Assembly: GCA_028279685.1 (NCBI GenBank)
Contig: JANQNG010000053.1
Coordinates: forward strand, 12,347 to 76,346
Reading direction: 5' to 3'
Length of the DNA stretch: 64,000 nt
From: Candidatus Nanoarchaeia archaeon
GTDB taxonomy: Archaea > Nanobdellota > Nanobdellia > Woesearchaeales > SKIA01
Part shown: piece by piece, positions 3,895 through 44,661 of the stretch
How the letters are laid out: every line of letters begins with the position of its first letter
Position numbering within the stretch: the first letter of the stretch is position 1
Made by a program: the position numbers and the translations under genes
Notes under the pieces: generated by a model
Seen by the model: the letters and a program-made list of their open reading frames with translations, nothing else
Databases searched by the model: none
Told to the model about the DNA's origin: nothing

Positions 3895-3915
3895 TTGTTG
3901 ACTTAAAGTCAACAA
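3895..3915. promoter_or_regulatory. perfect palindrome TTGTTGACT-TAA-AGTCAACAA upstream of grpE
   Basis: 9-bp inverted arms with 3-nt spacer, about 70-90 nt upstream of the likely grpE start; candidate heat-shock operator. Confidence 0.45.
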
Positions 3916-3925
3916 AATAGAAGAG

Positions 3926-4507: not shown

Positions 4508-4997
4508 GATTGGCAGAACGTGTGATTGCAAAGGAGGGCAATGCGGGAAGTGCTGCGAACATGTAGGAGCAGTATTCCTCGATGGAGAGGAAGAGAAAGT
4601 TGCAAAAACGAAGAATATGACTGCGGAGGAATTTGAGAAAAAATTTCTCGAACATATAACAAGATTCAATACAACAAGGAAAAAAGCAAAGCAAAAAGAA
4701 AATGGAGAATGCATATTCCTTGCAAAAAACGGTTTATGCACCATTCACGAAGTGAAGCCATTGCATTGCCAAGTATGTCATCACGGTCCTTATGGAGAAG
4801 AGGCTCATGATTGGTTCGATGTGCATTATTTTGTCAACACAAATGATCCAAACTCATTACGAGAATGGAATATCAAACTCAACGTCAAACCTTCTAAAGT
4901 TGAAGGTGTGGCTTTGAAAGATCTCATCGGAAAAAAAGTAGATGAGATCTTGCATTATGAAGATTTACAATACCAAGGAGGTAAAAAAAATGAGTAA
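4500..4997 (+). CDS. YkgJ/UPF0153-family CxxCxxCC putative Zn/Fe-chelating protein
   Basis: [12 protein letters not shown] and [25 protein letters not shown] match the PF03692 pattern; ATG 4500 overlaps grpE stop; its stop overlaps dnaK ATG (ATGAGTAA). Confidence 0.6.
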
Positions 4998-6846: not shown

Positions 6847-6856
6847 ATCTTTTTAA

Positions 6857-6876
6857 TATAATTTTTTTTATCTTAT
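6857..6876 (+). terminator. oligo-T element TATAATTTTTTTTATCTTAT (copy 2); alternatively a TATA-like promoter for dnaJ
   Basis: Identical 20-mer to 3789-3808, after the dnaK stop and about 20-27 nt before the dnaJ GTG at 6896. Confidence 0.3.
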
Positions 6877-6895
6877 TCAAAAAGAGTGAGTAAAG

Positions 6896-11742: not shown

Positions 11743-12567
11743 ATGAGTGATGTTATAGCATTAATTTGCGATGCCGATCAGACACTAAATCCTGAACTAA
11801 TGCAGAAGCCATTGTTCGAGCATTATGGTGTGACGCCGAAAGATTTTTTTGCTGAGGTTAGCAAAAGAGTAGAATCAATAAGAAAACAAGGAAAAAGAAT
11901 ACAATCTGAGTTGGCATATCTCAATCTGATCTTAGAAAAGATTGCTGATGGAACATTCAAAAATTTGAATGATGTGCTGTTGAGAAAGATAGGAAAGGAT
12001 ATTGAGTTCTGCAAAGGAGTTCCCGCAGTATTTGGGAAGTTAAGGAAATTACTTGCTGCAGAATTTCCTGAAATAAAACTTGAAGTTTATGTAGTGAGCA
12101 GTGGTATGAAAGAATTGCTAATGGGAAGTGCATTGATGACTTGCCCTGAAGAGGAACGTATCAATGATGTGTATGCGTGTGAGTTCCTTGAGAAAAATGA
12201 TGTCTTATCTGAAGTTGTTTTGAATGTCAGTTATACAGAAAAGACCCGTTTCTTATTTGAGATATCGAAGGGAACGGCTAAGGTGAATGAGCGTATTCCT
12301 ATCAAGAGAGTGCCGTTTAAGCAAATGATCTATGTTGGGGATGGATTGAGTGATGTTCCTTGTTTTAGTCTATTAATGGACAATGGAGGACATTGTTTAG
12401 GTATTTATGATCCTGATAATAAAGAATCATATGAGAAAGTAAAGAAATTACTAGATGATAAACGTGTTCATGCTATTGGTCCTTGGGATTACACTGAAAA
12501 AAGCCCTACCTATAAATGGCTTGTTAAAAGAATAAGAAAAATAGCAAAAAACAATAAAATTAATTAA
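11743..12567 (+). CDS. HAD-superfamily hydrolase-like protein
   Basis: N-terminal DADQT (DxDxT motif I) and C-terminal YVGDGLSD (motif IV). Confidence 0.5.
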   Translation: MSDVIALICDADQTLNPELMQKPLFEHYGVTPKDFFAEVSKRVESIRKQGKRIQSELAYLNLILEKIADGTFKNLNDVLLRKIGKDIEFCKGVPAVFGKLRKLLAAEFPEIKLEVYVVSSGMKELLMGSALMTCPEEERINDVYACEFLEKNDVLSEVVLNVSYTEKTRFLFEISKGTAKVNERIPIKRVPFKQMIYVGDGLSDVPCFSLLMDNGGHCLGIYDPDNKESYEKVKKLLDDKRVHAIGPWDYTEKSPTYKWLVKRIRKIAKNNKIN

Positions 12568-14835: not shown

Positions 14836-14924
14836 TGGACCAAGGGGGATTCGAACCCCCGACCTACGGCTCTCCTTCCAGATGATAGAAGGCCGTCGCC
14901 CTATCCAGACTAGGCCACTGGTCC
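14836..14924 (-). tRNA. tRNA-Arg(TCT) with ~14-nt anticodon-loop intron
   Basis: Manual fold: acceptor GGACCAG/TTGGTCC, D-arm GCCT/GGGC, 5-bp anticodon stem ACGGC/GCCGT enclosing CT-TCT-A plus 14-nt insert, AGGTC variable loop, T-arm GGGGG-TTCGAAT-CCCCC, discriminator A, no encoded CCA. Confidence 0.65.
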
Positions 14925-21308: not shown

Positions 21309-24300
21309 TTGAACACTGAAATAAATAATAGACTATTCAGTCTCTATCTTGTGTTCTTACTGCTTTTTGCTCCCTCTATTCATGCTGCAACACTTTCTGG
21401 AACAATCTACTCCCCCACAGATGAGTTTGCTTCAGGATACAATATCTCGATAACCCAACAAAGCATTGTTCTTAACACCACTACAAATGGTTCAGGATAC
21501 TATAACTTTACTGGATTAAATGAAGGAGATGCTTATTATTTCAAGTTAGCAACAGGTTATTGGAATTATCCTTTCTTATCATTCTTCACTGATCTTTCTA
21601 GTGTAGAATTAATCAATGTCACGGGCAATACTACTATAGATCTTACTGCCTATAAAGCAACATTCGTATCAAGTCTTCCTGTTATTGCTTCTGATCATCA
21701 AAATGGTTCATTGATCAATGTCACGATAAATATTACTAATCTTGATACTATTGACGTCGAGAATTATAGTATAATTTTCGAGCTGCACAATGATAATGGT
21801 ACAGAGATGCTTACTGATTCGATACTGGAAGGTCTCACGTTACTTGCTAGTACGACACAAAATTATTCCATTGCACTTACGGTGCCAAACAATGCTACTG
21901 AGGGAGTTGCAGATCTTGTGCTACAAGTTGAGCAGATGCAAAACATTACTGATAATTGGGGTAATTATTCTCTTCTCCAAAGCAGAAATATTACTTCACG
22001 TTCTATAACGATTAACACAACAAGTCCTCCTGTGCCTGATATGCCTCCGAATATTTCGGTGTTGTTGGAGGAACCGTTGGATGGTTCGGTGTTGGTGAAT
22101 GATACGAATGTTTCTTTTATTTTCAATGTAACTTCTGATGAGGATAGTTCGTTTAATGTGAGTTGTGATTTCTGGACGAATGCAAGTGGTAGTTGGACGA
22201 ACAGTAGTGGCTTTATTGATATTACTAATCTTGCGGCTAATACGACAAACATATCGCAGTCATTTTGGAATGAGAGCTTAGGATTGGCTGGTTCTTACAC
22301 TTGGAATGTGCGTTGCTGGGATGAAAATAATCTGAGCAATTACGCATTTGCTGCGACAAACAGAACATACAATGTAACAGAACCAATTGCTGGTATTGCT
22401 AGTGAACTCTTCAATTACACTGTGCAAAAAACATTGATGTCTGGAGATCCTGCTACGGTTGGAGATATGAATATATCATTTCTGATTAATATCACTAACA
22501 TAGGAGGGACAAATCTTTCTACAATCTATGTGAATGATACTTTTGATGGTGCTGAAATAGCTTATAACTATTCATCGTTGACTTATACGACATTAGGTGT
22601 TGATTCAATAGTGTGGGACAACCTTACGAATATCTCAGGCATAGAAATGCTCGAACCAGATAACTCGATTCTCTTGACAGTGAATTTCTCTGCTATTGCT
22701 GCAACTGCGGACACCGTTAATATGGTATTTGTGAATGCCTCTGATGAAGTAGGTAATGAGAGTACAAGCATCCTGAATGCGACAGCGAATCTAGGCATTG
22801 TTGATCTTCCAGGAAATTTCACTCCTGCTGCAATCCTGATCAATCTGCTGCAGCCTATGAATCTTTTTGTTACTGATAATGCAACGAATATAACATTTGA
22901 GTTTAATGTAACATCGGCAAGAGAGAATGATTATCGTGTTGACTGTGGATTGTGGTGGAATGTTTCTGGAGTATGGAATCATTCCGGTCAGAGCAATATC
23001 ACGAATCTACTGGCAAACACAACGAATCTTTCAGAAGATTCATGGAATCTTACGGTTTCAGTGCCTGGTGATTATGAATGGAATGTCTATTGTTTCAATG
23101 CCACAAACTCAAGTGAATTTGCGTTTGCTGCGCAGAACAACACTTTTAATGTGAGTGATGCTGGTGCTCCAGAGATGCCTGTGATGATCAACATCACACT
23201 AACGCAACCATTGGATAATGCAGTCAGCGACAACGAGACAAATATCTCGTTTATGTTTGATGTGACCTCTGATGCTATGTCCGCGTTCAATGTGAACTGC
23301 AGTTTCTGGTGGAATGTTTCTGGCGTATGGGCTGATAGTGGATTTGAGAATAAGACAGGGCTTGATGCGAACATGACGATGATGACTACTGAGTTCTGGA
23401 ATGTTACTGTTCCTGCAGTTGAAAGTTATGAATGGAATGTGTTGTGTTGGGATGATGCAAATGCAAGTGAATTTGCATGGGCTCAACAGAACAGGACATT
23501 CAACATCACAGCAGCAGCCATCGCACAAACTGAAGGAACGAATATCACTGTAGATAAATCATGTAATGCAACGGTGAATGTATCTGATACGATTGAATGC
23601 CTTGTGAATATCACAAGCTCAGATATCAACAACATGACTGAGGTATGGTTATATGATGATCATGACTTTGCGTTCCTTAACTTTACTAATCAGTCAACCT
23701 GTCCTGTTCACAACTATAGCAACAGTCCTGGTGTGGACGGCAGTTATGTAAATGTCAATCTCACCTCCTGCTATGGTGGCTTTAATCTGACATTGGGCAA
23801 TTCGTTCCTTGTCTATCTGAACTTCACTGCATTGAGCGGTCTTGGCAATGAGACGATGAATATGGTAAATGTCACCTTCCAGTCAACGAACGGTTCTACA
23901 TTCTATCTCAATGCAAGCACGCTCATTATGGTGATGAATGATAGCGGCGGAATGCCTCCCTCAGAAAGCAGTGCTCTTATCGTCAATAAGTCAATTCTCA
24001 ATTCAGGAAATTTCACAGAAGGAGATAATATCACGTATCATATCAATGTCACTAACAATCATAGCATGTTGAACATGACTTCTATTTTCGTAAACGATAC
24101 CTTCCAAGTAAGTCAGCTAGAGTATCTTGATGCAAATGTCACTAATACATCTGGCGCATCAAACTTTGCATCCTGGAATGACATTATTAACCTTGCAGGA
24201 ATAGGAAGTCTTGAAGCAGGACAGTCATTGTCGATGTATGTCAATTTCACTATTGTGATCAACACTGGAGAGTTTACCAACACAGTAACGGTGAATGGCA

Positions 24301-27300
24301 CGCTTGAAAGTGGATTCTCTGAAGAGAATTCTTCTACAGTTACTGCTTCAGCTGGAGATGCAGGAGGAGAGTCTCCAACCATGGGTAATTATACACCTAT
24401 GTGGAATGAGGCAAAGTATGCGCAAAACGTCACGATTGATGACTTTGATTTCTTTGGAGCGCCGTACGTGGCAAGGGACAAAGGATGCGGCGGTCAGATG
24501 CAGGAAGAGAACACCAGTGCCGTAGCTGGGCAGAACTGCCACAATGATGGCATGATGAATCCTTCTGCTGATGGAAGTATTGCATTAGATCTTGGTGCTG
24601 TCTGGGTCGATGAGACATACGACTTCATGGCATGGAAACTTAAAGGACCATTCTCAGATCCTAATTATCATAACCTTAGTGTCTGTGGTGGAAATACAAG
24701 CTATGCTGCGTATGTTGTTGAGTTTGATGTTGATGACAACATATCAACAGGCTGCAGTACATCAAATATGTCTGAAGGATGTTATCCTGGTAGCGATTTC
24801 CAGATTTGGTATTTCCCTGATGACCATAACTCCTTATTTGCCTATTATAATGGCAGCGAACCTAGTGCATGGGGTCCGAATGATGGTGGGGCTTGTGTCG
24901 ATGGCATCTGCTTTGTAGCTAACACTTCAGTAAATGTCTCGATGAATGTCTCCTGTACAGGAGAAGGTATTACTATTGTGGTTAACAAGACAGATCTTCT
25001 CATAGCAAATCCTGCGTTGAACTTTGAGACGAACTCATTCAATGTAACACAAGCAACAACAAATCCTATTGATATGCTTACGAATTGGGGAGGAAGTGGA
25101 TTCATTGAAGCATTCTTTTTTACAGGTCCACAAGAAGATGTGGGAAGTTGCTTCCAATTTGATAACAATGAACAAGGATGTATTAATGCGTCTGATAATT
25201 TTTACTGTGTGTGGCAGGACTTTGGCGGAGGTAATGGTCTTTGTGATCCTGACTTCAATAACTTCCAAGAAGGTCAAGCTTGTTTTACTTATGATAACCA
25301 GACTGCATGTGAAAACAGCGATATTGGATATTGTGAATGGTTGACAAATGTTCCTGATCCAGACAATCCAGGACAAACACAAAATATTTGTGTTGAACAG
25401 TTTAATCCATTCTTGATTAGTGGTGGTGGAGATTGTGATACAAAATGTTTCGACTGCTTCAGCCAGACACAATGTGAAAACAGCAATGCTAATGGCGGAA
25501 GTGAATATGGTGGTTGTGAATGGTATATTGATCCGTTCAATCAAGTGGGATTCTGTGAAGCAAAAGGTATGAAGTTTGGTTGTGCAGAGAATCCAAGAGA
25601 TTGCTTTAATCAGACAGGTTGTACAGATGCAAATTGGCATTGGAATAATACATGGATGCTTTGCGCAGAAGATAGTTTAACGGAGATTTGTTTTAATGGA
25701 GTTGATGATAATGGTGATGGACAAATTGATTGTTCAGATAATGACTGTTTTGAAGAAAAAGAATGCGGTGGTCAACTCAATACATTAACAGGAGATTATC
25801 AAGGTATGAGTGCAGAAGAAGCAATCATGTCTTACTTCTTTGGAACAGGAGATCCAAACATTATACATTTGAAAGATGATAATGCTTCTGAAAATATAGG
25901 TGACTTATTCAATTTGACAAGTTTCAAAGTAGTTGTGGGGCCAAGAGGGATTGGTATGGGTATTGGACTTCAGAATATGTCAACGCTTAGCGCTTGTGGA
26001 GGAAGCATTGATGATCATAAATACATTTATGCATTAGATACTGATGCTAATAGTTCTTCAGGTTGTAATCTAACTATTGATGGTACACAGAAAGAGGGCT
26101 ATGAATATATAGTCAAATATGGGAATTTCTCAGTTGCTAATGAATCTGGGCAAGAAATGTATCTCTATCATTGCCTGCTTGATCAATGGCTGCTCAAGCC
26201 AGGATTAGTTGTGACGCCTCCTGCAGGAGAAGATCTTGATCCTGGAGAACCTGCCATAATGGAATGTCAGACATTAGCAACTACTCCTGATGAGGGTGCA
26301 GTTGCTGCGGTTATTATTGACAAGGCAGATATTGGTAATCCAAAAGAAGATATGAGATTTTTTGTAATGGTTGCTAATGTAAGTTATAACGGAGGTTGGA
26401 ATAATCTGTCGAATCTTAGTGCTGTTGATCTCATTGAGAATATCTATTATACTCCTGGCACTATTGGTGCTGAACCTATCGATTGTTTCCAAGAACCAAC
26501 AAAATGTGGTGCTGGCTTTATGCAGATTGGTGGCGGAGAGTTTATGCCATTTGAAGATTGTTTAGGTTCTGGAGATGAAGATATTGATGATCTTGTTAAC
26601 TGTGCTGATCCTGATTGTTTCTTTGCACCTCATTGTCAAGGCAGTCAAGACTTATTCGATGTGAGCAGTGATGTGACTGCACCAACTATTACGCTTGCAA
26701 AAGCAGATACTTTCGACGATGCTGCATTTATCTCCTGGACGAACAACGAGCCAACAAATGGAAGTCTAAGATTTTATCATAATGATAGCGCATGTTCTAC
26801 ACTTAATATAACCATTATTGATGAGGGATTGCCAGGATCTTTTGATGATTTCAAACCTTGGCATGGAGTGCCATTAGATCCAATGTCATTAAGTTATTCG
26901 CTCAGCGCAAGCACAACATATTATTATAAGATCTATTCAACTGATCGCGCAGATAATATAGGCGTTTCAGCTTGTTTGAACTTTACGACACTAGGATCTC
27001 CTCAGAATCTTTCCATGGTGATTAATTTCACACCACCCGTTAATGATACAGGTGATTTCTTAGGTAATCTCAGTATGGATCTCAATGGAGAACCATTCCA
27101 AATAGACAATACTAATTCAAAAGAATCATTGTTTGATGCAAACATTACTTTGTATAATCCGAGTGCAAATGCATCAAAGAACTGGAGTATTGAGCTTATA
27201 GAAGCAGATATCTTTCAAGATATGGTGTTTGACTTTAGTAGTGCATTACTGGCTAATGATTCTGGCGATCATGATGAAAATATTGGTATGGATGGCTATA

Positions 27301-30300
27301 GTTGGATGAACATAGCGCAGAAATTTGGCGTCGAGTATATTATTATTAAAATTCCAAATAATGGTGAAACACTCTATCATTGTCAGGATAATGGTACTAA
27401 TTGTACTGATGTGACGAGCACAAATGGTGTAGAACTTCTTGAAACAACTGCAGATTATACGAAATGGAAGATTCCTACTACACTAGGATTCTCAACGTAT
27501 TCAGCAGGAGGATCGACAAATGAGACATTCAATCTTACTTATGCGAATCTCACAACAACAACGCAAACAATCAACACATCGCAAAACACATTTTATCTTG
27601 TCAATGTTACTAATAATGACAATGTCACAAGAGGATATAATTTTAGTCTTGAGATAAGCGGTTCAGTAGATTGGGCAATCAACAACTCAGCAGGTCTTAA
27701 TAATATAGTATTTGCTGTCAATGAAAGTCAAGTATTGAATGTATCAATGAATTCAACCACAGAAGGAACGTATGCTTTCAATATTATTGGCATTAATGCT
27801 ACTAATGCGAGCATTGTACTCAATTCAAGCGAAGATTTGACATTGACACTTGTTGTAACGAATTGTTTCAGGCCATCAAATAGTACCACTGTTGTACTTA
27901 ATGAATCAACAACACTTTGTGCAGGAACGTATAATAAAACCAGATTCCAGTTCAATGCTGATAATATTACACTAGACTGTAATGGTGCTATCCTCGATGG
28001 TCAAAATACAACTTCATATGCAGTACAGGTACCAAATGGTATTGATGGTACAACATTAAAAAATTGTAATATCACAAGATATGATAATGCCTATGAAACA
28101 CAATTTATTGGTGACCCTGCAGCATATGACTATGTCATTAACAATACCTTCGAAGAAAATGAGTATGGGGTGTATCACGTTAATAATTATCTTGTGATGA
28201 TTATCAATAACACATTCTATGATAATGAATGGGGTATCCATTGGGGTAATAACGATTTCGGACTTATTCAGAACAATAACTTCACAAGACATAACTATTC
28301 TGCTATTGAGTTTGACAGTAGCTCAGTTATCAGGCATGCTGCTATTGTCGATAACTATTTCGAGGAAAATGCACTTAAGGGATGGCAAAACGCAATAGAG
28401 ATTGATGGCCAACCAGAGGATATTCTAATCCATAATAACACATTCATCAATAACAATAATTCGAACATACAAGCCTCATCAAGCTTTGCTATGGTAAGAT
28501 TCAACATCACGAACAATTACATTAGCAATGTTAAGAACGGAACAACAAGAAATGCTATTACACTCTATGATGTCCAGAATTTCTATATAGCGCACAATAC
28601 ACTCCTTAATGTCAATGGTTCAGGTATTTATGCAAGCTCAGGAACTAATGCTAACATCACTATCTACAATAATACTATTAAACATGGAGGTCTTACGAGT
28701 ACTAGTGCAGGAATATCCTTTGTTATAGGTGTCTACAATAGTACTATCACTGATAATTTTGTGGAAAACTTCTCTTATCCGATTTATCTATATGGCTACT
28801 CAGGAGATAATGTTGTCTATAACAACATCTTCAATCTTAGCGTCAATCCTGCCTACAATGGCAATAGCACAAATCAATTCAACACAACACTCAATTGTTC
28901 ATCAACAAACATCATAGGTGGGTCTTGTTACGGAGGTAACTATTGGGCGAATGCTACTTCAGGACAAGGATTCTCGCAGAGCTGTACTGATGCTGATAGG
29001 GATGGTATCTGTGATTCTACATACAACATTTCTGGAGTTGTAGATTATCACCCATTGACCAATGTAGGTAATGATACCTATTCAGATCCATACGAATATG
29101 ATGATGTATACACCAGTGCTAAAGGAGTCTTCACTGATGGTACTTGGCAATTCCACAATCTCAGCAATGCATCTGATATTGACTGGGTCAACTTCTCAGC
29201 CTCGGATGAAGAAGCTTATCTTATTGATACTACTAATTTCAGTGTGACAGGAACAGGAGCAGGACAATTAGATCTCTATATGACAATCTATAATGCTTCT
29301 ATGACTGCTCTTGAGACAAATGATGATGCGAATAGTGGAACCAGCAACGCAAGAATTAAATTCATTGCGCCATACGACGGTATATTCTATGTCAAAGTGC
29401 AGGACTATGACAGCACTAAGACATACGGAAATCTTAGTTATGCCATACAGGTTGAAAAACAAGGAAGACTTGTTGTTGTTCCTGTTAGTCATGCTGCTCA
29501 GAGTTCTTCTAACTACACATTACATACTACATTTAACGTGACTACTGCAGTGACTTGTCAAGGAGGTCCATGCCGTGAAGTGGTTGCTATTCTTGATCCG
29601 GAGCCGAAAATTAACAAAAAGATTCTCGATGACATTGAAAAGAAAGGAAAAGCAAATGTCATCATTAAACTAAAAGAGAAAGAAGAGAAAAAAGAACCAT
29701 TCTTTGGTATTTTTGCTTCTGATAAAGATGTGAAAGAAGAATTCCTTGATTCTATCAACACGAGAAAACTAGGTGAAGAAGAACCGCAAGGATTCTTTGC
29801 TGGAGTTGCAAGAGCATTAGGTATAGAACAAGAACCTGATCTTATTGTGCAACACACTTATGATGTGGTTGACGCAGTTAGCGGCGAGATTACGTCAGAG
29901 TCAATAGAAGCATTGCTAGAAAATGATCTTATTGAATCAATTGAATATAGTGTGCCTGTGTTTGCATCATTGTTTGATACCGTCGATCTGATCAATGCTT
30001 CGACAATGCAAAACTACGCAATCAACAGCACATACATGAATGGCACTGGTGTAACCGTATGCGTAATTGATTCTGGTATTAATTACACGCATCCTGATTT
30101 CGGTTCTTGTAGTCTAACTAGTGACATTAATGATGGTAGCTGTCCAACGGTTATTGGAGGTATTAATTATTGTGTTGATGAGGCGTGCACATCTACTGAC
30201 ATGAATCCAATTGACACGTATGGACATGGATCGCATGTTGCTGGTATTATAGCTTCAAGAGATGCGACGTATACAGGAGTTGCTCCAGGAGCAAAAATTG

Positions 30301-33300
30301 TTGCAGTAAAAGCATTGAACTCTTCAGGACAGGCAAGTGATTTCAGCAATATTTTAGCAGGTATCAATTACTGTGTAGCTAATGCCACGACTTATAACAT
30401 CTCAGTTATCACCATGAGTTTAGGCTCAACAGTCTACACACAACATTTCTGTGATGAAGATTACAGCTCAACAAGAGATGCGATCCAATCAGCCATTGAC
30501 GCAGGTATTATGGTTGTTATTGCTTCAGGTAATGAAAACAAAGGATATGACGATCCGCTCGGTATATCCTATCCTGCCTGTATCCGTAATGCGACAAGTG
30601 TTGGTTCGACAACAAAAGCCGATGCTGTTTCTACATTTACTAATAGAGCATATACGCTTGATTTGATGGCTCCTGGAGGAAGCATTGGAGCAACGGATTA
30701 TGATGGAACGCATGTTTCAATGAGTGGTACCTCTATGGCGACACCACATGTTTCCGGTGCAGCAGCCATTATGCAACAATATGCAAGAGAACTCTATGAT
30801 AGAAATATTACTGCACTCGATATTGAGACTCGATTACGGATGTTTGGTGTTAATATAGCCGATTCAAATTCAGGTCTTACCTATGCAAGAATAGATGTTG
30901 ATAACGCTACATTAGGAAAAGGTATTATTCCAAATACAACAGGAGCAGTGCCATTCTATATTGTTGCAGACGCTGGTCATGCAATGCAAAATCCATTTTG
31001 GATTGGCACTATGTCCGATGGAGAGACAATCAATACGTCCTGGATGGTTAACGCTACAGGAAACTTTACAGCGTATGAGTTCTTTTCTATCTATCAGAGT
31101 GACTTCTATGAATCTAACACATCACACTGGGAAATAAACATCACCGATATGCCAAATACACCTCCATACAGAAATATAAGTCCTGTTACTTCAGCAAATG
31201 AGGACACACTTTATTATAATGATGTGCAGGGTTTAGATAATGAATCACATAGTATATCGTATTCATTGAATTTGATTCCAACAGATTCAAATGCATCAAT
31301 TGATACCAATGGCTCAATTACTTGGACTCCTGATAATGACGATGCGGCAATTCAGAACTACACATTTAATTTAACATTGACAGATCAATTAGGTGATTCG
31401 AGCAATTATCAATATAATGTTACGGTAAGTAATGTGAATGATGCTCCAACTATCACTTCATCTCCAACATCGACAGCTACAGAGAACACATTATACACCT
31501 ATAATGCAACAGCAACAGATATTGATCCAACGAATGATACTATGACTTATGCTCTCCAGATCAACGATACCAATGCATCGATGAACTCTAGTGGACACTT
31601 TGAACTCTATGTTAATTCCACAGAGGTTGGTATTACATATAACTTTACAATTAATGTAACAGATGGTAATGGTGGATGGGATAACCAGACATGGAATGTA
31701 ACCGTCGAAGACGTCAACGATGCTATTACTATTTCCACAACACCTAACTATAATGCTACAGAAGATGCATTATATCATTATGACGTGAATTATACAGATC
31801 CTGATACTCCTGATGATGATGTGAGCTTCTATCTCACAACGTATCCAACAGGTATGATTATCAATATTAGTGATGGTAATATTACCTGGACGCCTGATAA
31901 TGATGATATTGGCAACAATACTGTTGTGGTTTTTGCTGTAGAGAATAGCACAAGTGAACATTACAATGATACACACACCTTTGGTGTCTGGGTAGCTAAT
32001 ACCAATGATGCACCATCAATAAATGTAACACCAAACGCATCAGCAACAGAGGATTCATTATATACTTCAACGTTTACAGCGAGTGATGTCGATCCAACGA
32101 ATGATACCATGAGTTATTATCTGCAGAGCAACACAACAAATGCAACTATCAACAGCAGCTCAGGTATTTTTTACTTCTTCCCTCTACAGGCAGATGTTAA
32201 TATTATGCATAACTTTACGGTGAATGTTACTGATGGCAATGCAGGATGGGATAGTCTTGATTTCAATATTACAACAAGCAATGTGAATGATGCGCCTGTC
32301 ATTTCAACTGCAGCAACGACGCGTTCAGCGGAGGAAGAGACTGAGTTCTGGCTTGATGTTGATGCTACTGATGAAGATAGTGATACATTAACCTATTCGA
32401 TAAGCACTTATCCTACAAGTATGGTGATCAACAGTTCTACTGGTAATATTACTTGGACGCCAACAAATACACAAGCTATTGCTTACACACATGCGGTTGT
32501 GGTTAACGTCAGTGATGGTAATGGGGGAGAGGATACTTTATCATTCAATGTAACAGTGAATAATACCAATGATATACCTGTACTCAACAGCACACATAAC
32601 ACTACAGCAATTGAAGACCTTGAATACACATATCTCTTTAGTATGAATGATTCTGATAACAAAAGTGATTCGTGGAATTATACGCTCATTAGCGGACCTG
32701 GTAATATGACTATAGGGTTAGATTCAGGATTGATCCAGTTCTCACCAAACAACTATGATGCAATCAATGGCTCCTACATTATCAATATCAATGTTACAGA
32801 GTACAATAGTAGTGGAGCAAATATGAGTTATCAAAATATCTCATTCAATCTAACAATTACAAATGTGAATGATGCTCCATCATTCACGAATGAACCTTCT
32901 GGTCAGCAATCAGTGCTTGAGGATAGTGCGTATAACTATGATTTTGATGCGACTGATCTTGATCCAACAAGCGATACATTGACTTATAGTTTGAATATCT
33001 CAGTATCAACTAATATTTCAGCAGTAACGGTAGGATCGAGTAATGGTAATCTAACGTGGACACCAACAAATGACGAGGTTGGAACTATAACATTACAAGT
33101 CGATGTTAGTGATGGTAATGGTGGATCTGATAATGTTACCTTCACTGTTCTAGTCAATAACACCAATGATGCTCCTGTTATATCAACGACATCACCGACT
33201 TCTGTAGCTACACAAGGATCAGAATATACCCAACAGATTAATGCATCAGATGCAGATTCAGGAGATAGCATCATGTATCAACTCAATGTTTCTCCATCAG

Positions 33301-36300
33301 GAATGTCTATGAATGATACAGGATATATTACGTGGACTCCAAACAGTACACATGGAGGAAATACTTATTCTGTTACTGTCGTTGTAAATGATACAAGTAA
33401 TGCGCAGGATAATCTTTCTTGGGATATTACAGTGAATGATGTTAATGATCCTCCTAATATTACTTCATCACCATCGGTGAATGCCACTGAAGATGTTAGT
33501 TATACATATAATGTAATCGCTACTGATCCGGAAAATGATACATTAAGTTATTATCTCACGATCTATCCTTCTGGTATGACGGTCACTATTTCCACAGGCC
33601 AAGTAAGTTGGACTCCAACAAATAGCGATATCGGATTCAATAATGTGACATTGCAGGTGATAGAAAATGCTACTGCGGATCATTATAGTACAACCCAGAA
33701 TTGGAGTGTTTATGTGAGTAATGTGAATGATGCTCCTGTTCTCTCAGGAATACCTGATCAGTCATTCGCAGAAGATTCATCATCAAATGTATCGATCAAT
33801 CTTTCAGCTTATGCAAGCGATAGTGATGGAGATACATTAACGTATGCAATCCAGTCTGAGTCAAATGAAGGATTAGTTAACTGCTCTGTGAACAGCACAA
33901 CTACACTGATTACTTGTACAGATCCTTCAGCAAACGAGAATGGTGCTTCAACAGTTGTTGCTAATGTGACTGATGGGACTTCTTGGGACACCGATACGTT
34001 CACCATTACTGTCACGTCAGTTAATGATGTACCAACGTTTACTGATGTTCCTAATACTACAATAACATTAACACAAGATGTTGCCTATAGCTTTGATGTC
34101 AATGCTACAGACAATGACACTAATGATACTGTTGCTGATGTGCTCAATTATTATGATAATACAAGTTTGTTCAACATTAATCCTTCAACAGGTATCATCA
34201 GTTTTACACCGTCATCAGATGATATCGGAAATCATAGTGTTTTGATCTGGACGACAGATCAGTCTAGTGCTAATGATACATATGCATTTACTGTTACTGT
34301 ACAAGATGCTAACGATGCTCCAACAGGAACTCCTATTCCGAACATGCAATGGAATGAAGATACCAATGCGAGTATAAATCTAAGTGAATATTTCACCGAT
34401 GCTGATGGTGATGTATTGAATTTCACTGCAGCTGTCCATAACGATACGCAAAATATCACTATAACGATAAACAATGAAACAGGTATTGCACTCCTTGTGT
34501 CTGCAGCAAATTGGTACGGAAAAAGAAATGTGACTTTTAATGCATCTGATCCGTCAGCAGCAGTAGCTTCAATTTACGTGAATTTGACAGTGTCCTCAGT
34601 GAATGATCTTCCTGTGGTTGCTGTCTCGAACATTTCATTGCAGGAAGATAGTGCTGTGCAGTTTATCAATATATCAGGCAATGTGAGTGATGTTGATCAA
34701 TCAGATCTAACGGCAATTGTATGGGCTATTGATTCATCAAATACATTCTCTGCAGATCTTGGGACTGCACAAATTATTAACAATACTTATCTAAGAATTG
34801 CGTTGACGGCAAATGCATTTGGCAATGATACTATCAGACTAAAAGCAACTGATACTCCTGGAGGAAGTGGTTATCAGACGTTATTGATCAATGTGACAGG
34901 AGTCAATGATGCTCCTTCAACACCAACTATAGTAATTCAACCTTCAGCACCTACACCAACTGATGATTTGACCTGTTCAAGAACACAGAATGCAACAGAT
35001 ATAGATGAGGATACTATTGTTTATTTCATTGATTGGTATAAAGATGGTGTGTTGCAAACTTCATATACAAATACAAGTACGGTTAGCAGTGCTGCTACTT
35101 CATCAGATGAACTTTGGAGCTGTGTAATGACTGCTTTTGATGGCACGGTTAATGGAACAGCAGCAAACACAAGCACTACTATCGGGAACAATCCTCCAAC
35201 CATACCGACAATAGCATTCACGCCATCATTACCATATACATCAGATATGCTCTATTGTAATGTTACAACAAACAGCACTGATGCAGATAATGATTCTATT
35301 GATTATCTCTATGAGTTCTATAAAGATAATATCTTGAATTTCACTAATCAAACAAATGTTACCTATGCTCCATTGCCATCTGCGTTGACAGCAAAAGGAG
35401 AGGTGTGGAAGTGCAGTGTACGTGCTTATGATAATAAAAGCTATAGCAATAGTACTTCGTCGACGAGAACAATCATTAACACAGAGCCTGTTGTTACAGT
35501 CAATTCACCAGTATCTGGTACACCGAGTGTTGTTGAGCCTGATTATCAAGAGTTCAATCTCTCTGTCTATGACGCAGACAATGATTTCATCTCCTTCACT
35601 TGGACAAAAGATGCTGTGCAGATGGTTGAAAACAACTCTAATGAAACATTTTCATCATATAGCTACTATAATAACTACACAGAAGCAGGTAATCATACTA
35701 TTGTTGTCTCAGCCAGTGATGGTCAAGGCTCAGATACCTTTACTTGGACATTGATTGTGAATAATACAAACAGAGCTGTTGCACTTGATGCAATACCTGC
35801 ACAAACAATGACGGAAGATACTGCATTTTCTTTAACTATCACTGCGAATGATTCGGATACTGATGATACTTTAGTCTATGGAGAAAATACCTCTTTGTTT
35901 GCTATCGATACATCTACAGGAGTAATAAGTTTTACTCCCGACAACGATGATGCGGCAATACCAAGTAAAGTATATAATGTTAATATAACTGTGACTGATG
36001 GTGTTTCAACAGATTGGGAAGTTGTTGATTTCACCGTCAATAATGTAGAAGATGCCCCTGTATTAAGCAATATAGGATCACAAACTGCATTGACGACAAT
36101 AGATTATGTGCTTGAGATGTCAGCATCTGATGCAGATAATAGCACAATTACGTATAATGTTACTAATCTCACAACAGTTACATTCCTTGCTGATGGAGCT
36201 TTGAACTTCACTTCAAGTACGGGAGTGTTCAATCTTTCTGCAAACGCATCGCACGTAGGAACATATTTATTGAATTTCTCAGTGACTGATGGCAATACTA

Positions 36301-39300
36301 CTTCTGATGATTCAGAGATTGTTAATATTACTATCATTGACAGTAATACAGCACCAAATATTACTAGTTCATTTCCTTCATCAAATACTCCGTCGATCAA
36401 TGAAGGATCATCACAGCAATTTTGGGTAACGGTTTATGATAATGAGACTACACCAGGTGTGGCATGGTATGTTGATGATGTATTTAATAATTCTGATACT
36501 TCTTGGACATTCACCACAGATTACAGCAGTGCAGGATCATACACAATCAAAGCTATAGTCTCTGATGGCGAACAAAGTGTGCAAAAGCAATGGGTACTTA
36601 CGGTCTTGAATGTCAACAGAGATCCTATCTTATCAGCAATTGCTGACCAGACTGCTACAGAGGATCAAGAATTCTCATTAACCATATCTGCTTCAGATGC
36701 AGATGGAGATTCCTTAACGTTCTATGATAACACAAGCCTCTTCAATATCAATCCATTAACAGGAGCAATTACTTTTACACCGACTAATGCACAGAGTACA
36801 GGGGATAGAGTCATAAAAATTAGTGTTGCTGATCAACATGGTGCAATAGATACACAAGATGTAACATTCACCGTGCAAAATACTAATGATGCTCCTGTCC
36901 TCAGTGCAGTAGGTCCGCAGACAGCACAGAGTGATGTTCTTTTCACAAGATACATTTATGCAAGCGATATAGATCTTGGCATCACGGGAGTAACAGAAAG
37001 CTTGACCTATAGTGATGATACTTCATTATTTGATGTCACGACAATTAATAGTACATTAGGGGTTATTAACTTCACACCGTCGAGAAATGATATTGGAACG
37101 CATTTTATTAGAATAAGTGTTACTGACAGCAGCGATGCAGTAAGTAATGAATACATTTTCTTTGATGTGCTTGATTCTAATTCACCACCCGTGTTTACCA
37201 ATATTTCACTTTCAGGAGCAATAGAAGATAATCTTACTAGCAATGCAACTGCAGTATATTCTATTACAGAAACGACAGCAGCGTTAACGTTTAATAGTAC
37301 TGCCTATGATCCTGATGGATCGCAGATTTCAACGACATGGAAGATTGATGATGTTTTAGTGAGTTCTACTTCAGGTTATGTGTTTACGCCAAGTTATACA
37401 TCAGCTGGTAATTATACGCTTGTGCTCAATGTGACCGACGGTCTTGCTTATGTGAATAGAACATACACCATTCATGTAAGTAATGTGAACAGAGATCCTA
37501 CTATTTCTGCATTGAGTAATCAATCATTGACAGAAGACACGCTTTTTACTTATCAAATAAATGGAACTGATGCAGATAATGAACCATTAACCTATGCTAT
37601 TAATGATACGAGAATACCTATTGATCCACAAACAGGTCTCATTAATTTTACGCCGACACAGTTGCTGCTTGGCAAGAGCTCTACCACTAAAATGTTTGAG
37701 CTGAATGTGACGGTCAAAGACAATGTCTCAGGAACAAACAATGGAGAGGTATCTGCATTTGTTAACTTTACTTTGACAAATGTCAATGATGAACCTGAAC
37801 AGGTAGCTAATGTTCCCGATGCACTATTCTTTGAAGATCAGACATTCAGCATCAATCTCAGCTATTACTTTGATGATCCTGAAAATGATACATTAACCTA
37901 TGGTGTGTATGCAACGCCGGTTAATATTACAACAACGAAGATCGGCAGTGATAGTTATAATCTTACGCCTGCTGAGAATTTCTATGGGGAGAATAATATT
38001 ACATTCAATGTTTCAGATGGTGCATTGGAGATTGAATCAAATATTGTAATATTGACCGTACAGTCAATGAATGATCTTCCTTCAATTAACACATCAAATA
38101 ATAATCTTGATATCTATCTGAATGAGGATAGTGGAACGACGAGTTTTAATTTGACAGGCAATCTTACTGATTTGGAGACTCCCTTATCATCACTTGTGCT
38201 TTCTATCAGCCAAGACAATAGGTTCTCGACGGAACTTGGTAGTGCTGTGATAGAGGATAAAAATATCACGTTTACTCTTGCAAGCAATGCATACGGCAAT
38301 GACACTATACTGCTCAGAGTTACTGATGCTGATGGAGGTTATTCAACAGCAACTATGTTCGTCAATATCACTAATACAGCAGATGTACCAAGTGCTCCTT
38401 CAATTGATCTCGTGCCTGATAATGCGACAGCGAATGACAATTTGACATGTAACATTACTGCAAACAGCACCGATCCTGATGGTGATACTGTTTCTTATGT
38501 GAGGGAATGGTACAGTGGAGCAAATGTTAATAGTCTTTCATTGCAATCAGACCTTACAGGTAATGAAACTATTACTTCATCAAATACATCAGGCAGTGAA
38601 GTATGGAGATGTAATGTTTATGCGACTGATGGTACTCTCAATAGCTCGACGGTATCTGATATTATTATCACAGATAATACTCCTCCGACACAGCCAGGTA
38701 TTGTGATTCATCCATCAACAACCGTATCAAGATTAGCTACATACACTACTGATAGTTTAATCTGCAATGTCACAACAACAAGCAATGATACGGGAATTAT
38801 TTATTATAACTATACTTGGTATAAAGATGGATTGGAACAAACAAGTACAAGAACCACGGTATCGTTTGTGATGCTGAGTTCAGGTTCTACGTCAAAAGAT
38901 GAACAATGGAGATGCGGCGTGAAGGCAGAAGATGATCAAGGATCCTATAGTCAACCAGCATCATATGTGACGAGAATTCTTGATTCAACTCCAACGGTTG
39001 ATAGCAGAAGTCCATCAGATGATAATGTGACTATCACAGAAGGTCAGAATACCACCTTTATCTATGTTGTTGCTGATGCAGATAATGATGCTATAAGTTA
39101 TGCTTGGGAACTTGATGATGTTGCAGTGAGTTCAGTGAGCAATTATACGTATAGTGCATCGTATACTTCCGCAGGAGTGCATGTTTTAGAGGTCGTAGCA
39201 AGTGATGGTATTAATGAACTTTCAGCAAGCTGGGATATCACCGTAACTGAAGTGGCAAGAGCACCAGTTATATCGACAGTGCTTGAAGATACTATTACGG

Positions 39301-42300
39301 TGTTTGAAGATGAATCTTATCAGGTTGATATTGTGGCGAGTGATCCTGATGGAGATGCGTTGACATTCTATGACAATACAGGATTGTTTGATATTGGTCA
39401 AACTTCAGGAAGAATTAACTTTACGGCAACGCAAGATCATGCCGATACAGGTAGTTATTCTGTTATTATTACAGTGACTGATGGTAATAACAACGATACA
39501 CTTTCAACGACATTCAGCATCGTAAACATTAATGATGCACCTGTATTGAGAAATATAGGAGATCAAACAGCACGTTCAGATAGACAATACACGCTAAGAA
39601 CGTCAGCATCAGATGATGATGGTGATACAATGACGTATTCAATGATCGGGCTTGATGCGTCATATCTAAATGTATCAACAGGAATACTTAATTTTACGCC
39701 AAGTAGAGAAGATATTGGCACAAGCAATGTCACCATAATTGTAAGTGATGGCAACGGAGGTCAGGATTCAGAAACATTCTCTTTTACCGTGCTTGATTCA
39801 AATCATCCACCATTTATTGTTTCGGCAACGCCAAACTCCAGCAATGTGACTATTAATGAACTTGAATCGCAGACGTTTGGCATTGTAGCTAGTGATCCTG
39901 ATAATACAACGCCTTCAATAACATGGTATAGAAATGGTACGCTTATAGCAGGTGAAATAGGTAATACTTTTACTTTTACTTCAAACTACAGTGATGCAGG
40001 AGATTATTTGTATGAGGCTCAGGCGAGCGATGGTATTATGACTGTAACACAGAGTTGGATTTTGACAGTGTTGAATCTCAACAGAGATCCGTTCTTCAAT
40101 GACTTTGCAAATCAAAATCTTACTGAAGATATTGCTTATTCAATGACAGTAACTGCTGTGGATCCTGATGGGAATGATCTCAGGTATTACAGCAATTCAA
40201 CATACTTTATCATTGACACAGATAATGGCACTATAAGTTTCACACCGACACAATCAATGCTTGGGTATAATGAATCAGTATCAGAAGAGGTTGGTATATT
40301 TGCAGAGGATGGTAATGGAGGATTTGGATCAACATCAATACTCTTTACTATTAATAATGTAAATGATGCACCGGTGCTTTCACCAGTAGGAACATTGACG
40401 GTGCTAAGCGGAGAGACTTTGTCAATGCAGCTTTCTGCAACTGATGTAGACTCATTGAGTTTAAGTTATGCTGATTCAGGATTTGATGGATTTAATATGA
40501 ATAATTCAGGATACATTAATCATACTTTTACAGCACAAGATCTTGGGTCACATGAAGTACTCCTTACGGTTGATGACGGGGATGGTGGTGTTGATGCTGA
40601 AGTTGTAATTATAAATGTACTCGATAGTAATCAGTATACGCCAAGTGTAGATTCATTCACACCTGCATCGAATCTTTCAATCAATGAAACTGAGTCAGTA
40701 GCATTTACTGTATCAACATCCGATGGTGATGGAACTACACCTACCATTAGATGGCTCGTTAATAATGAAATAGTAAAAGTTGAAACAGCAAGTTCATCAA
40801 CATACTACTACAGAACAACCTATGATACGGGAGCAGGAACAAATAACATCACCGTGAATGTTAGTGATGGAAGTAAAAGTTCAACTGAAACAAGAGCGGT
40901 TACTGTCCTGAACAAGAATAGAGCTCCTATTATTATACCATTAGGTAATCAATATGTTATTGAGGATAATTGGCACTACTTCAGATTTGATGTCGTCGAT
41001 CCTGATGAAGGAGATACCTTATTCTTCCATGCTAATTCGACACTTTTCGAGATCACCTCTATAGGGGAGAATATTATTGAGTATTCATTCTTCCCCACAC
41101 AAGCAGATGTTGGCGTGCATGAAATGACAGCGAGAGCAATGGATGGTACAACAGTGACAACTTTAGTTTTCAATATTACTGTTGTTGCAAGTAATGATGA
41201 TCCTATAATAACTACAATCCCTGCATTATTCTGCGATCAGGATGATGGCACTGATTGTGCATATGATGTTGAAGCATCAGACTCAGACGATACTGATCTC
41301 ATCTATGAGGCATTCACCGATCTTTTCACAATAAACCCATCAACAGGAGCATTCTCATTTGATGATTCAAATGTGCAAGCAGGATATTATGAAATTATGG
41401 TGCGTGTTTCCGACGATGAAGGTGCCTTTGATTTTGATATCCTTAGGCTTTTCATAGCAGATACCAATGAGTATCCAAGAATTGACAAAGTGATGCCTAC
41501 AAACAGCACGCAAAACATTTCGGAGTCAGAGTCAATAGATTTCGTTATTGATGCATGGGATCCTGATGGAAATGTTCCAACGGTAACATGGTTGGTTGAT
41601 GATGTAACGCAAGATAGACAGGCATTGCAAGAAAGATTTACCTTCAGAACAAACTATACACAGTCAGGCACATACACCATCACAGCAAGAGCTTATGATG
41701 GAAATTATGCCAATACAACATCTTGGACGGTCATCGTGAACAACGTAAGAGATTCAGACAATGATTATATCCCTGATTACTATCCAAATACCACGTTATG
41801 GGACAACTGCAGATACGTCTATAATCCTGGCCAGGTAGATCTGGATGATGATAATGAAGGAGATATCTGTGAGAATAATCTTGATGGAGATACCGTGCCT
41901 GATGATAGAGATAATGTCTTAGGAGATGCTAATAATCTTCAGTCTGATAGTTTTGATCACTTCTCGTTGCATATTGGAGGGGGAGATAATCTCAATCAAG
42001 AGTTTGATGGATCAAACAATGTACGATTCTTTGAAACTGAGTATTCGCTTGCTAATGGTGCTGCGACATCCGCACCCCTTATTGACATGGACTTCAACTT
42101 CAGCAATGGAACTCTTGATATGGGAAATTTCAGCATGGATCAACAAGCAGGAGGAGCCAGTGAAGGAAGTTTCTTAGCACAAGGATTTCCTTCAGGAGAA
42201 ACTAAAACAATCTATGTCGACAGTATACTCGAAGATAGCACAGTATGTATTGAAGATGCTGAAATAACTAGCATTGCAAGTATATCAACAGGATGTGCTG

Positions 42301-43181: not shown

Positions 43182-43224
43182 TATTTATAAACAACGAAGC
43201 TAAATATGATTTGGGTGGTATAGC

Positions 43225-44661
43225 ATGAGATCGATAATCCTGAGTTTAATCTTTTTGATTCTGACATTGCCTTTAGGGTTTGCCCTCTGGGAAGAGCCTA
43301 CATCATCGAATTTGATGACTGCTGGACAAGAATTTGAGAGCAATGGCTTCACCGCAGTGGTTTTATCTGTCGATGAAGACAATGCTGATGTTCAAGTATT
43401 AGGACCAAGTGGAAAAATTGTGGGGAGAGGGATTATAACAATGGAACAAGACCTCACTATAGAAGAGGAAGTAAGGATCAAAGCTGAAGAATTCGTTTAT
43501 CGATATGAAAAATATCATGTTCTTTTCTCTTTGGAATCATGGATTGATGGAGAGATACTTGATGTTCATGCGCCTGAACAGTTTGAGTTGGATAGAAAAT
43601 ATGATGTTGAAATAGATATTAGAAATACAGGTCCTGCGGATGCTTCTTATGTTATGATGCTTGAGTATGATGATACTGAACTCTGGAGTGACGCTACATC
43701 ACGTCGTATATCTCTCGGACAGAACGAAAGAGGAACTATATCTTTTGAAATAAGACCGATCAAAGATATTACTAAGCCTATCGATTTCGTTCTTATTTCT
43801 GCAGATGAAGAATTAGGAAGAAAAAGTATATCAGGATTCTCTTTTGTGGAATCCCTTATCGCAATCAAAGAAGTTGTGTTTTCAGAAATTATGCAAACCA
43901 ACGGAGAATATCCGGTCACTATTGTCGTGGAGAATAATGATGAAGTTACAAAATCAATGAGTATTAAGCTTATTGGTGAATATTTTATCCTTAATACACT
44001 TGCGGGACCTGGAGACTTATTGAATGTCAATGTTCCTGCACATTCAACAGGAGAAGTTACGTTCTACGTTAAACCATTAAACAAAGGCATGCAGAACCTT
44101 AATGTTAAGCTTTATGATGATAAATTATTTGCAGAAGAATCATTAGTTGTGGTTGATGTGCGTGACACGAATGTTGGATATATAGGAACGATTACCATTC
44201 CAGAGAATATGGTCAAGGGAGAAGAAAATGAAATTACTATTGTTGTACACAATGCAGGGGCGGAGGAGAGTGAACTTGTTGTGAAAATCATAGCAGCTTC
44301 ACTTGATTATGATGTTTCTGAAAAGATGATGATTCTTGAGGGACAGTCTTCTAAGGAAACTTCTTTTACCGTGAAGCCTTTGCTTACTGGTGAGATTCCT
44401 TTTCAGATAGTATTATATCGTAATGATGAGAAGATTGATACAGAAAGTGCTGTTATTAACGTGAATAAAGGAACAACAACATCACCATCAATACCAACTG
44501 AAGATGATGAAGAATCTGAACTAGATATTGTTGTTTGTCCAGAACCTGAGCCTTGCAGCACAGGATTCAAGAAGGCATTTATCACTTCATTAGTTGTTAA
44601 TTTTCTTCTGTTGATTATCATTGGTATCAATCATTTAAGAAAAATGGGAATTACACTCTAG
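43225..44661 (+). CDS. CARDB-repeat surface protein with C-terminal TM anchor
   Basis: Signal peptide; several about-100-aa repeats with NxG..A motifs (DIRNTGPADAS, VVHNAGAEES); ends STGFKKAFITSLVVNFLLLIIIGINHLRK. Confidence 0.6.
   Translation: MRSIILSLIFLILTLPLGFALWEEPTSSNLMTAGQEFESNGFTAVVLSVDEDNADVQVLGPSGKIVGRGIITMEQDLTIEEEVRIKAEEFVYRYEKYHVLFSLESWIDGEILDVHAPEQFELDRKYDVEIDIRNTGPADASYVMMLEYDDTELWSDATSRRISLGQNERGTISFEIRPIKDITKPIDFVLISADEELGRKSISGFSFVESLIAIKEVVFSEIMQTNGEYPVTIVVENNDEVTKSMSIKLIGEYFILNTLAGPGDLLNVNVPAHSTGEVTFYVKPLNKGMQNLNVKLYDDKLFAEESLVVVDVRDTNVGYIGTITIPENMVKGEENEITIVVHNAGAEESELVVKIIAASLDYDVSEKMMILEGQSSKETSFTVKPLLTGEIPFQIVLYRNDEKIDTESAVINVNKGTTTSPSIPTEDDEESELDIVVCPEPEPCSTGFKKAFITSLVVNFLLLIIIGINHLRKMGITL

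Follow-up and report, generated by a model that had tools for sequence, protein, structure and literature searches.

The 64,000-nucleotide (nt) stretch of DNA analysed here (the window; positions 12,347 to 76,346 of contig JANQNG010000053.1, GenBank assembly GCA_028279685.1, Candidatus Nanoarchaeia archaeon) contains a single giant open reading frame (ORF; 21309..43181 in window coordinates, 7,290 codons without a stop, TTG start), and the protein encoded by it is, as judged from its sequence, a member of Peptidase S8, the subtilisins. The protease lies deep inside the chain. That is, about 700 amino acids (aa) that appear to form a genuine and complete subtilisin zymogen unit, in the order PPC domain, short beta segment, I9-type propeptide, S8 catalytic domain and beta domain, are preceded by a head of about 2,560 aa and followed by a stalk of about 3,500 aa, and the enzyme is predicted to cut its own chain at the I9/S8 junction. 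All features of the giant ORF are on the + strand. The earlier note on this DNA had described a complete I9 and S8 unit embedded mid-protein, about 2900 residues from the N-terminus. This was borne out, as the S8 domain occupies aa 2889-3205, scores 153 bits with the Pfam model of the family (PF00082) and, together with its propeptide, resembles pro-subtilisins in two AlphaFold models.

The S8 catalytic domain (29973..30923) was recognised by Pfam, by phmmer against PDB sequences, by alignment with known subtilisins and by AlphaFold and Foldseek. Pfam Peptidase_S8 covered aa 2912-3174 with an E-value of 2.6e-42 in a 4,000-aa piece of the protein, and the excised domain matched PF00082 with an E-value of 1.4e-44 (145-153 bits across runs, against a cut-off of 21.8). 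The phmmer search retrieved 166 subtilases, the best being the intracellular subtilisin 7y6m (E 2e-35), and in the alignment with PDB subtilisins the ASGNE sequence of the giant paired with AAGNE. The catalytic residues were then checked in an alignment of the domain with subtilisin BPN' and 138 relatives (cluster representatives). The triad that had been read from the sequence in VIDSGI, HGSHVAG and GTSMATPHV proved to be intact, all three residues standing in BPN'-equivalent columns: the catalytic Asp is D2921 (BPN' D32; 30069..30071, within the VIDSGI motif at nt 30063), the catalytic His is H2973 (BPN' H64; 30225..30227, the first His of HGSH in the HGSHVAG motif at nt 30225) and the catalytic Ser is S3142 (BPN' S221; 30732..30734, within the GTSMATPHV motif at nt 30726). 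Neither a misplaced triad residue nor a loss of the oxyanion-hole Asn was seen in this alignment, the latter being N3075 (BPN' N155; 30531..30533) in ASGNE. The D32, H64 and N155 columns are kept in 138 of the 138 relatives and the S221 column is Ser in 135 of them, and the substrate-binding strand S125-L126-G127 is also retained in the giant. A subtilisin alpha/beta fold was predicted by AlphaFold with a predicted local distance difference test score (pLDDT) of about 90 over the domain. Foldseek superposed the model on subtilisins with template modelling scores (normalised by PDB chain length) of 0.82-0.90 and a root-mean-square deviation of 2.2-3 Å. All the sequence and fold evidence thus points to an embedded S8 domain that is probably a catalytically competent enzyme. 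The domain could in principle be a catalytically dead binding module like CspC/CspA, given that S8 pseudoproteases exist and that a weak match to the NCBIfam CspC model was obtained. However, the giant retains an intact triad, oxyanion Asn and S125-L126-G127 strand, conserved as in the relatives, and we therefore rejected the pseudoprotease reading, which seems extremely improbable.

The I9-type propeptide, a putative intramolecular chaperone and inhibitor, corresponds to aa 2765-2888 (29601..29972), is K/E-rich and matched PF05922 with 18.3 bits (E 0.004), below the cut-off of 21.2; a precomputed PF05922 match is carried by many of its homologues. In spite of the sub-threshold score, the segment was assigned to I9 because its predicted fold matches those of pro-subtilisins. 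Two AlphaFold models were produced, one of 553 aa (pLDDT 77) and one of 716 aa (pLDDT 80), the second being run with full-cassette homologues, and in both of them I9 was folded confidently against S8 (pLDDT of I9, 70-93). The best PDB matches of both models in Foldseek were unautoprocessed pro-subtilisin E (3whi, E 1e-27), pro-Tk-subtilisin (2e1p and mutants) and ProN-Tk-SP (3afg), and the alignments covered 430-475 columns, including both the propeptide and the enzyme. The earlier suggestion that S8 is preceded by its own propeptide therefore stands as regards fold and position, but the Pfam score of I9 does not reach the cut-off.

The remaining parts of the cassette flank this core. The PPC (pre-peptidase C-terminal type) beta-sandwich, at aa ~2590-2727 (29076..29489), is N-terminal to the propeptide and also scored below threshold in the giant (PF04151, E 0.005, 18-19 bits, cut-off 25.9), whereas 17 of 20 homologous segments of relatives matched PF04151 at E<=0.01 (best E 1.2e-8); the region was modelled as a folded beta-sandwich with a pLDDT of 75-90. 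By definition, PPC domains are located C-terminal to the peptidase and are removed after secretion. In the giant and in the whole subfamily, by contrast, the PPC domain is N-terminal to I9 and not C-terminal to the peptidase. PPC and I9 are separated by a short conserved beta segment that contains a CxGGxC motif and has LDP at its end (aa ~2734-2762; 29508..29594). This segment is present in all full-cassette relatives and forms strands at residues 150-178 of the second model (pLDDT 85-94); if it packs on the post-S8 beta domain, the two chains would be held together should the I9/S8 junction be cut. Downstream of S8, a conserved beta domain (PFY...NxSW.VNATG...YEFF; aa ~3206-3290; 30924..31178) matches the beta-jelly-roll of Tk-SP, with one HMMER stretch to 3afg running through chain residue 509 and a structural match of 583 aligned columns. 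Its strands have a pLDDT of 68-94 in the second model, while the first run gave no confident model there. The earlier note had placed the protease unit at 29560-30910 and had put a PPC domain before the protease. That interval does contain the I9 and S8 core and the PPC domain is supported by the relatives, but PPC lies outside it, at nt 29076-29489 and thus upstream of 29560, S8 continues to 30923 and the beta domain reaches ~31178. Taken together, the five parts would make up a complete subtilisin zymogen unit, structurally like pro-Tk-subtilisin and Tk-SP according to the models.

A further feature of the propeptide is its lack of N-glycosylation sequons. No NxS/T sequon occurs in the 124 aa of I9, the only part of the giant devoid of them, whereas the whole giant has 5.6 per 100 aa. 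Family-wide, the density is 0.87 per 100 aa in I9, 2.6 in S8 and 5.5 in the rest, and it is lower in I9 than in the rest in 106 of 106 relatives. It thus appears that the I9 propeptide is kept free of N-glycosylation sites throughout the family, which would be expected for a domain that packs tightly on the enzyme and is later degraded.

In I9-bearing subtilases, self-cleavage at the I9/S8 junction normally occurs ahead of external activity, and in subtilisin E and BPN' the I9-type propeptide serves as an intramolecular chaperone, is removed autocatalytically and is inhibitory until degraded. For this reason self-cleavage and external proteolysis, which the earlier note had offered as two possibilities and both of which we infer for the giant from its sequence, would not be alternatives. 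When the junction was aligned with that of BPN' (HAY/AQSVP, the slash marking the scissile bond between Tyr-1 and Ala1), the scissile bond fell two residues before the SVP motif of the family. The predicted autoprocessing site in the giant is F-A-S-L2888/F-D-T-V from P4 to P4' (29961..29984). Leu stands at P1 in 128 of the 138 relatives, including P0271, P0247, P0262 and P0298, in which the cassette is also deeply embedded (see below), and in both models the I9-S8 linker is the one stretch between these two confident domains that has a low pLDDT. Since the near-invariant P1 Leu is kept at the junction, one specific cut after L2888 is predicted, and not a general fragmentation. A comparable order of events is known for Tk-SP, whose N-propeptide Ala1-Ala113 is autoprocessed first (PMC3599501). 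On this evidence we consider it somewhat more probable than not that the giant protein cuts itself once, after L2888, into two chains.

Several points weigh against such processing. The I9 and PPC assignments both remain under the Pfam curated cut-offs in the giant. Its mature N-terminus would be FDTVD, which departs from the DxSVP of the family, so that the exact register and the efficiency of cleavage could differ from those of the relatives. Furthermore, we know of no characterised precedent for an extension of 2,760 aa N-terminal to the propeptide, and the head might hinder or alter processing. External proteolysis would also not follow automatically from cleavage: in PCSK9 the prodomain stays bound after the cut and blocks the site. 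Likewise, the CspB prodomain stays tightly bound after autoprocessing and occludes a competent site (PMC3567191). It may even be that no self-cleavage takes place, in which case I9 would stay covalently attached, S8 would be permanently latent or would act externally without splitting the chain, and the protein would be an intact tethered adhesin-protease. The deviation of FDTVD from the SVP motif would agree with this, as would the finding by proteomics that a giant surface protein of Nanohaloarchaeum is largely intact, at >315 kDa (PMC6642349). However, that protein is non-homologous in the region concerned and its protease domain is disputed (PMC10266531), the giant has kept the P1 Leu, the triad and the I9 fold, and a covalent I9 tail lying in the cleft would block external substrates. 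An uncut protein is therefore regarded as unlikely.

The relatives of the cassette indicate how it may have come to lie so far inside the protein. When 1.84 billion cluster representatives were searched exhaustively with HMMER, the PPC, I9 and S8 stretch being the query, 2,173 proteins were obtained at E<=1e-30. (A narrower homologue search with the module returned nothing longer than 967 aa, missing even the 7,276-aa protein of the query itself, and is unsuited to censuses of giants.) Among the best 150 relatives, 29 are collinear over the whole ~700-aa stretch from PPC through the beta segment, I9 and S8 to the post-S8 domain, and the cassette is thus, at the sequence level, a conserved unit. 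In a typical relative it begins at residue ~21-45, directly after the signal peptide, in a protein of about 1,200-1,500 aa. The closest relative, P0244 (1,197 aa, 46% identical), also has a Gly linker, a PGF-pre-PGF-like domain and a transmembrane helix, and the gene of P0001, annotated as 'S8 family serine peptidase' in a Micrarchaeota metagenome-assembled genome (MAG), likewise opens with PPC-I9-S8. In the 148 closest representatives the median start of I9 is residue ~44; more than 500 aa precede the cassette in 11 of them, more than 1,000 aa in 5 and more than 2,000 aa in 2, namely the giant and P0271 (5,092 aa, catalytic Asp at 3877). When reference genomes and metagenome contigs were scanned, about 75 loci were obtained, S8 being usually at a distance of 20-250 aa from the beginning of the ORF and never with more than ~1,030 aa upstream, even though flanks of 10 kb were available. 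These scans missed deeply embedded relatives that were later found among the cluster representatives. In five such proteins (P0271, P0247, P0262, P0277 and P0298; 2,300-5,092 aa) the cassette lies 1,000-3,900 residues in, and some of them have two PPC copies. Their heads have building blocks in common with that of the giant (DUF11 repeats, Cys-rich modules and beta-helix) and are non-collinear with it. The nearest S8 neighbour of each deeply embedded relative is a protein with an N-terminal cassette; in one instance, P0262 (Asp 1661) and P0246 (Asp 493) share 75% identity. Because of this pattern, the cassette appears to have gained an upstream head on several independent occasions. By sequence comparison, the cassette of the giant corresponds to the module with which the members of a large family of anchored DPANN proteases normally begin, and a head of 2,560 aa has displaced it towards the interior of the chain. 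The giant itself is a common archaeal surface protease in enlarged form and not a new kind of system.

Since the cassette stands directly behind the signal peptide in most relatives, and since the sequence is metagenome-derived, one may ask whether the giant is an artefact, that is, a chimeric assembly or a misfused gene call in which a head gene and an ordinary protease gene with an N-terminal cassette were brought together. The evidence argues strongly against it. The 7,290 codons run without a stop in a genome of 37% G+C, with a uniform G+C content of 0.37-0.40 along the giant ORF. The giant protein was also called in the Logan assembly of run SRR20820740 and is its own cluster representative (P0243, 100% identity), the ORF as called in other assemblies being 7,276 aa from a GTG located 14 codons inside. 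The exact product of a neighbouring gene is recorded under both NCBI and Logan, on a 103.8-kb contig. No hydrophobic relic of a signal peptide is found ahead of PPC, and P0298 is collinear with the giant across the boundary between head and cassette (giant aa 2505-3428). Moreover, the C-terminal 4,700 residues of the giant are collinear with the N-terminal-cassette proteins P0264 and P0263, and other proteins, too, have more than 1,000 aa upstream of the cassette. With collinear relatives at hand and no signal-peptide relic, the assembly-chimera reading was rejected, and an artefact of either kind is hardly credible.

Outside the cassette, the giant has the architecture of a large surface protein. 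A Sec-type signal peptide at aa 1-26 (LFSLYLVFLLLFAPSIHA, followed by A; 21309..21386) is predicted from the n/h/c-region pattern of the translation, and the protein without it has a mass of about 787 kDa. The N-terminal head (aa 27-2584; 21387..29060) holds 175 NxS/T sequons and comprises a CarboxypepD_reg-like domain, DUF11-like repeats, Cys-rich modules, an fn3-like domain and a right-handed beta-helix of the Beta_helix/NosD type (aa ~2236-2549; 28014..28955; Beta_helix E 1.5e-26, NosD E 1e-15 to 1e-20). No catalytic domain was recognised in the head by the Pfam and NCBIfam scan, nor was a match found when it was compared with PDB sequences. Downstream of the cassette comes a stalk of about 35 immunoglobulin (Ig)-like domains (Big_9, He_PIG, cadherin-like and PKD; aa ~3291-6830; 31179..41798). 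This is followed by thrombospondin-type-3-like acidic repeats and a beta domain (aa ~6831-7060; 41799..42488), homologous to the C-terminal region of P0247, P0263 and P0264, then by a Gly/Thr-rich linker and a PGF-pre-PGF domain, an archaeal surface-protein domain (aa ~7099-7210; 42603..42938; TIGR04213, 37.6 bits, cut-off 28). The protein ends in a transmembrane helix (aa 7259-7280) with a 10-aa basic cytoplasmic tail, HRRKREREIA (helix and tail, 43083..43178). No PGF motif of a PGF-CTERM archaeosortase signal is present ahead of the C-terminal helix (LPNKTVTALIWFIV), and the helix is a plain transmembrane anchor. From the signal peptide and this helix we infer an export topology in which the protease would stand at the distal end of the stalk, with the head beyond it. 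The 406 NxS/T sequons of the giant, compared with 154 expected from composition, would fit a heavily N-glycosylated archaeal surface protein.

The genes around the giant place it in an archaeon of the DPANN group. The window encodes aRF1, an archaeal class-I CCA-adding enzyme and aIF5B, the best matches of the latter being proteins from Nanoarchaeota/Woesearchaeota MAGs at 60-62% identity, and on the strength of these sequences the host organism is a Woesearchaeota/Nanoarchaeota-like DPANN archaeon. A tRNA gene at 14836-14924 (- strand) was called 'Pyl, anticodon CTA' by ARAGORN. The Rfam alignment and the loop identified it instead as tRNA-Arg(UCU) with a 14-nt intron after position 37; tRNA-Pyl and amber read-through were therefore rejected, and this gene, not being an amber suppressor, gives no sign of stop-codon reassignment. 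The ORF that follows the giant (43225-44661, + strand) is K/E-rich with few sequons, and a TATA-like TTTATAAA at 43183-43190 suggests that it has its own promoter. The region is rich in envelope genes, with predicted surface proteins at 8110-9303 (+; 397 aa, Big_9/PKD) and at 12564-14693 (-; 709 aa, Laminin_G_3 and a MopE-like metal-binding motif), the latter being a gene separate from the giant. A pair of genes for DnaK (Hsp70, E 5e-241) and DnaJ is located at 4942-8008 (+).

The reading that we favour, with slightly better than even confidence, is that a probably active zymogen cassette cuts itself, that the head is thereby split off and that the tethered S8 then works on external substrates. 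The protein would be exported through Sec and anchored by its C-terminal helix, and the presumed topology would put the protease and the head at the far end of a stalk which, estimated from the typical size of an Ig domain, could be more than 100 nm long. The unglycosylated I9 would fold against S8 as in pro-subtilisins, as the structure predictions suggest. S8 would then cut its own chain after L2888 (FASL/FDTV), as homology and the conservation of the site suggest, the products being a 312-kDa chain of head, PPC and I9 and a 474-kDa chain of S8, stalk and anchor. Degradation or displacement of I9 might subsequently release the head or make it available for re-use, and the freed, tethered S8 might digest external proteins, be they envelope proteins of the host or of neighbours, or proteins yielding peptides for uptake.

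The chain could, on the other hand, be cut after L2888 and stay latched. That is, I9 would remain in the active site, the cassette would act mainly as a non-covalent joint between head and stalk, and one trigger, for instance host contact, Ca2+ or force, would both activate the protease and release the head. The modelled fold is that of an inhibited zymogen complex, and in CspB a prodomain does remain on a site that is competent for catalysis (PMC3567191). To discard the head at maturation would seem wasteful, given its size, its cost and its presumed function, and heads have repeatedly been added upstream of the propeptide. However, nothing in the sequence separates stable from transient binding of I9, a sequon-free and K/E-rich I9 suits a degradable propeptide equally well, and the common ~1,200-aa relatives, with only PPC and I9 upstream, suggest ordinary zymogen activation as the ancestral role. 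We accordingly judge persistent latching to be rather unlikely. A more specific form of it, which we regard as doubtful, is a zymogen latch in which the I9-S8 junction is a self-cutting breakpoint and the 312-kDa head is held on the stalk tip only by the I9 plug; loss of I9 upon host contact, Ca2+ or force could then release or deploy the head and switch the protease on together.

Among known systems, the nearest is the anchored DPANN/archaeal S8 family itself, represented by P0244 and P0001, in which the whole ~700-aa cassette is collinear with that of the giant at 40-46% identity. This family shares with the giant the P1 Leu, four invariant Cys, an Ig-like C-terminal extension, the Gly linker, the PGF-pre-PGF domain and the transmembrane anchor, but its cassette comes right behind the signal peptide and its stalk has ~300-900 aa, whereas the giant has 2,560 aa before the cassette and a stalk of ~3,500 aa. 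The best structural matches over propeptide and S8, Tk-SP and Tk-subtilisin of Thermococcus kodakarensis (3afg, 2e1p) and pro-subtilisin E (3whi), of which Tk-SP matches additionally in its C-terminal beta-jelly-roll region, are small secreted proteins (about 400-640 aa) without a PPC domain before the propeptide and without head, stalk or anchor, and their identity to the giant in the structural alignments is only 21-25%. Surface S8 proteases that are mounted on a long spacer or stalk and act on external substrates include lactococcal PrtP, streptococcal C5a peptidase, Pyrococcus pyrolysin and the Staphylothermus STABLE protease on tetrabrachion. In these cell-envelope subtilases the prodomain and S8 are N-terminal, or the protease is a separate stalk-bound polypeptide, and to our knowledge none of them has a region of several thousand residues upstream of the prodomain.

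As models for the fate of the head, two bacterial systems can be considered. The Bacillus subtilis WprA precursor gives rise to CWBP23 and CWBP52: a stable protein from the N-terminal pro-region, which persists in the wall in its own right, and an S8 protease. Both of them stay at the cell surface (PMC8767453). In Clostridioides CspBA/CspB the prodomain stays bound after autoprocessing (PMC3567191). Both, however, are much smaller and belong to other S8 subfamilies, with a pro-region of tens of kDa as against the 312 kDa of the giant.

Among giant proteins, those of Omnitrophota carrying S8/C39 peptidases (West-Roberts et al.; bioRxiv 10.1101/2023.11.21.568195) were proposed by their authors to be cut into smaller products or to cleave other substrates, and the idea of an S8 domain cutting the giant that contains it is therefore not new in principle. 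Compared by description, they are, like the DPANN giant, membrane-associated, multi-domain and S8-bearing, but they are bacterial, exceed 30,000 aa and have S8 near the N-terminus, and neither an I9/PPC cassette nor a conserved cleavage site nor any kinship with the present family has been described for them. The SPEARE and nanohaloarchaeal giants are likewise DPANN proteins, mostly extracellular, with Ig-like adhesion domains, a C-terminal transmembrane anchor and a proposed role in host interaction (PMC6642349, PMC10266531). Their defining feature, a large cytoplasmic C-terminal domain, was described as type III restriction-like (Hamm 2019, PMC6642349) and later re-read as a VirB4/TraG ATPase (La Cono 2023, PMC10266531), and their 'serine protease' region is a threading prediction that is disputed (PMC10266531). 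The present giant lacks a large cytoplasmic C-terminal domain, having a 10-aa tail and no such Pfam or NCBIfam match, and Pfam found no Laminin_G domain in its ORF despite the many Ig-like, cadherin-like and PKD domains. Its S8 domain, in contrast to the disputed SPEARE 'serine protease', is unambiguous. Membership of SPEARE was therefore rejected.

Ultrasmall symbiotic archaea and bacteria are marked by giant surface proteins, for which the question arises of how they mature and whether they act as one chain or as several. The present protein gives this question a concrete form, with a secure protease, a predicted cut after L2888, expected fragments of 312 and 474 kDa and a 700-aa cassette; unlike SPEARE, it is a DPANN giant whose protease assignment is secure. 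What is new is that a complete zymogen cassette lies deep within the chain, that such a position apparently arises by repeated accretion of heads onto a common protease family, and that a specific cut site, at L2888, is predicted. If the propeptide is cleaved, the heads of such proteins would by construction be releasable or only non-covalently held, which bears on how DPANN archaea contact and feed on their hosts. Should the zymogen latch prove true, adhesion would be coupled to proteolysis, and its repeated independent evolution in DPANN archaea would suggest that placing cargo upstream of a subtilisin propeptide may be a general route to releasable surface modules.

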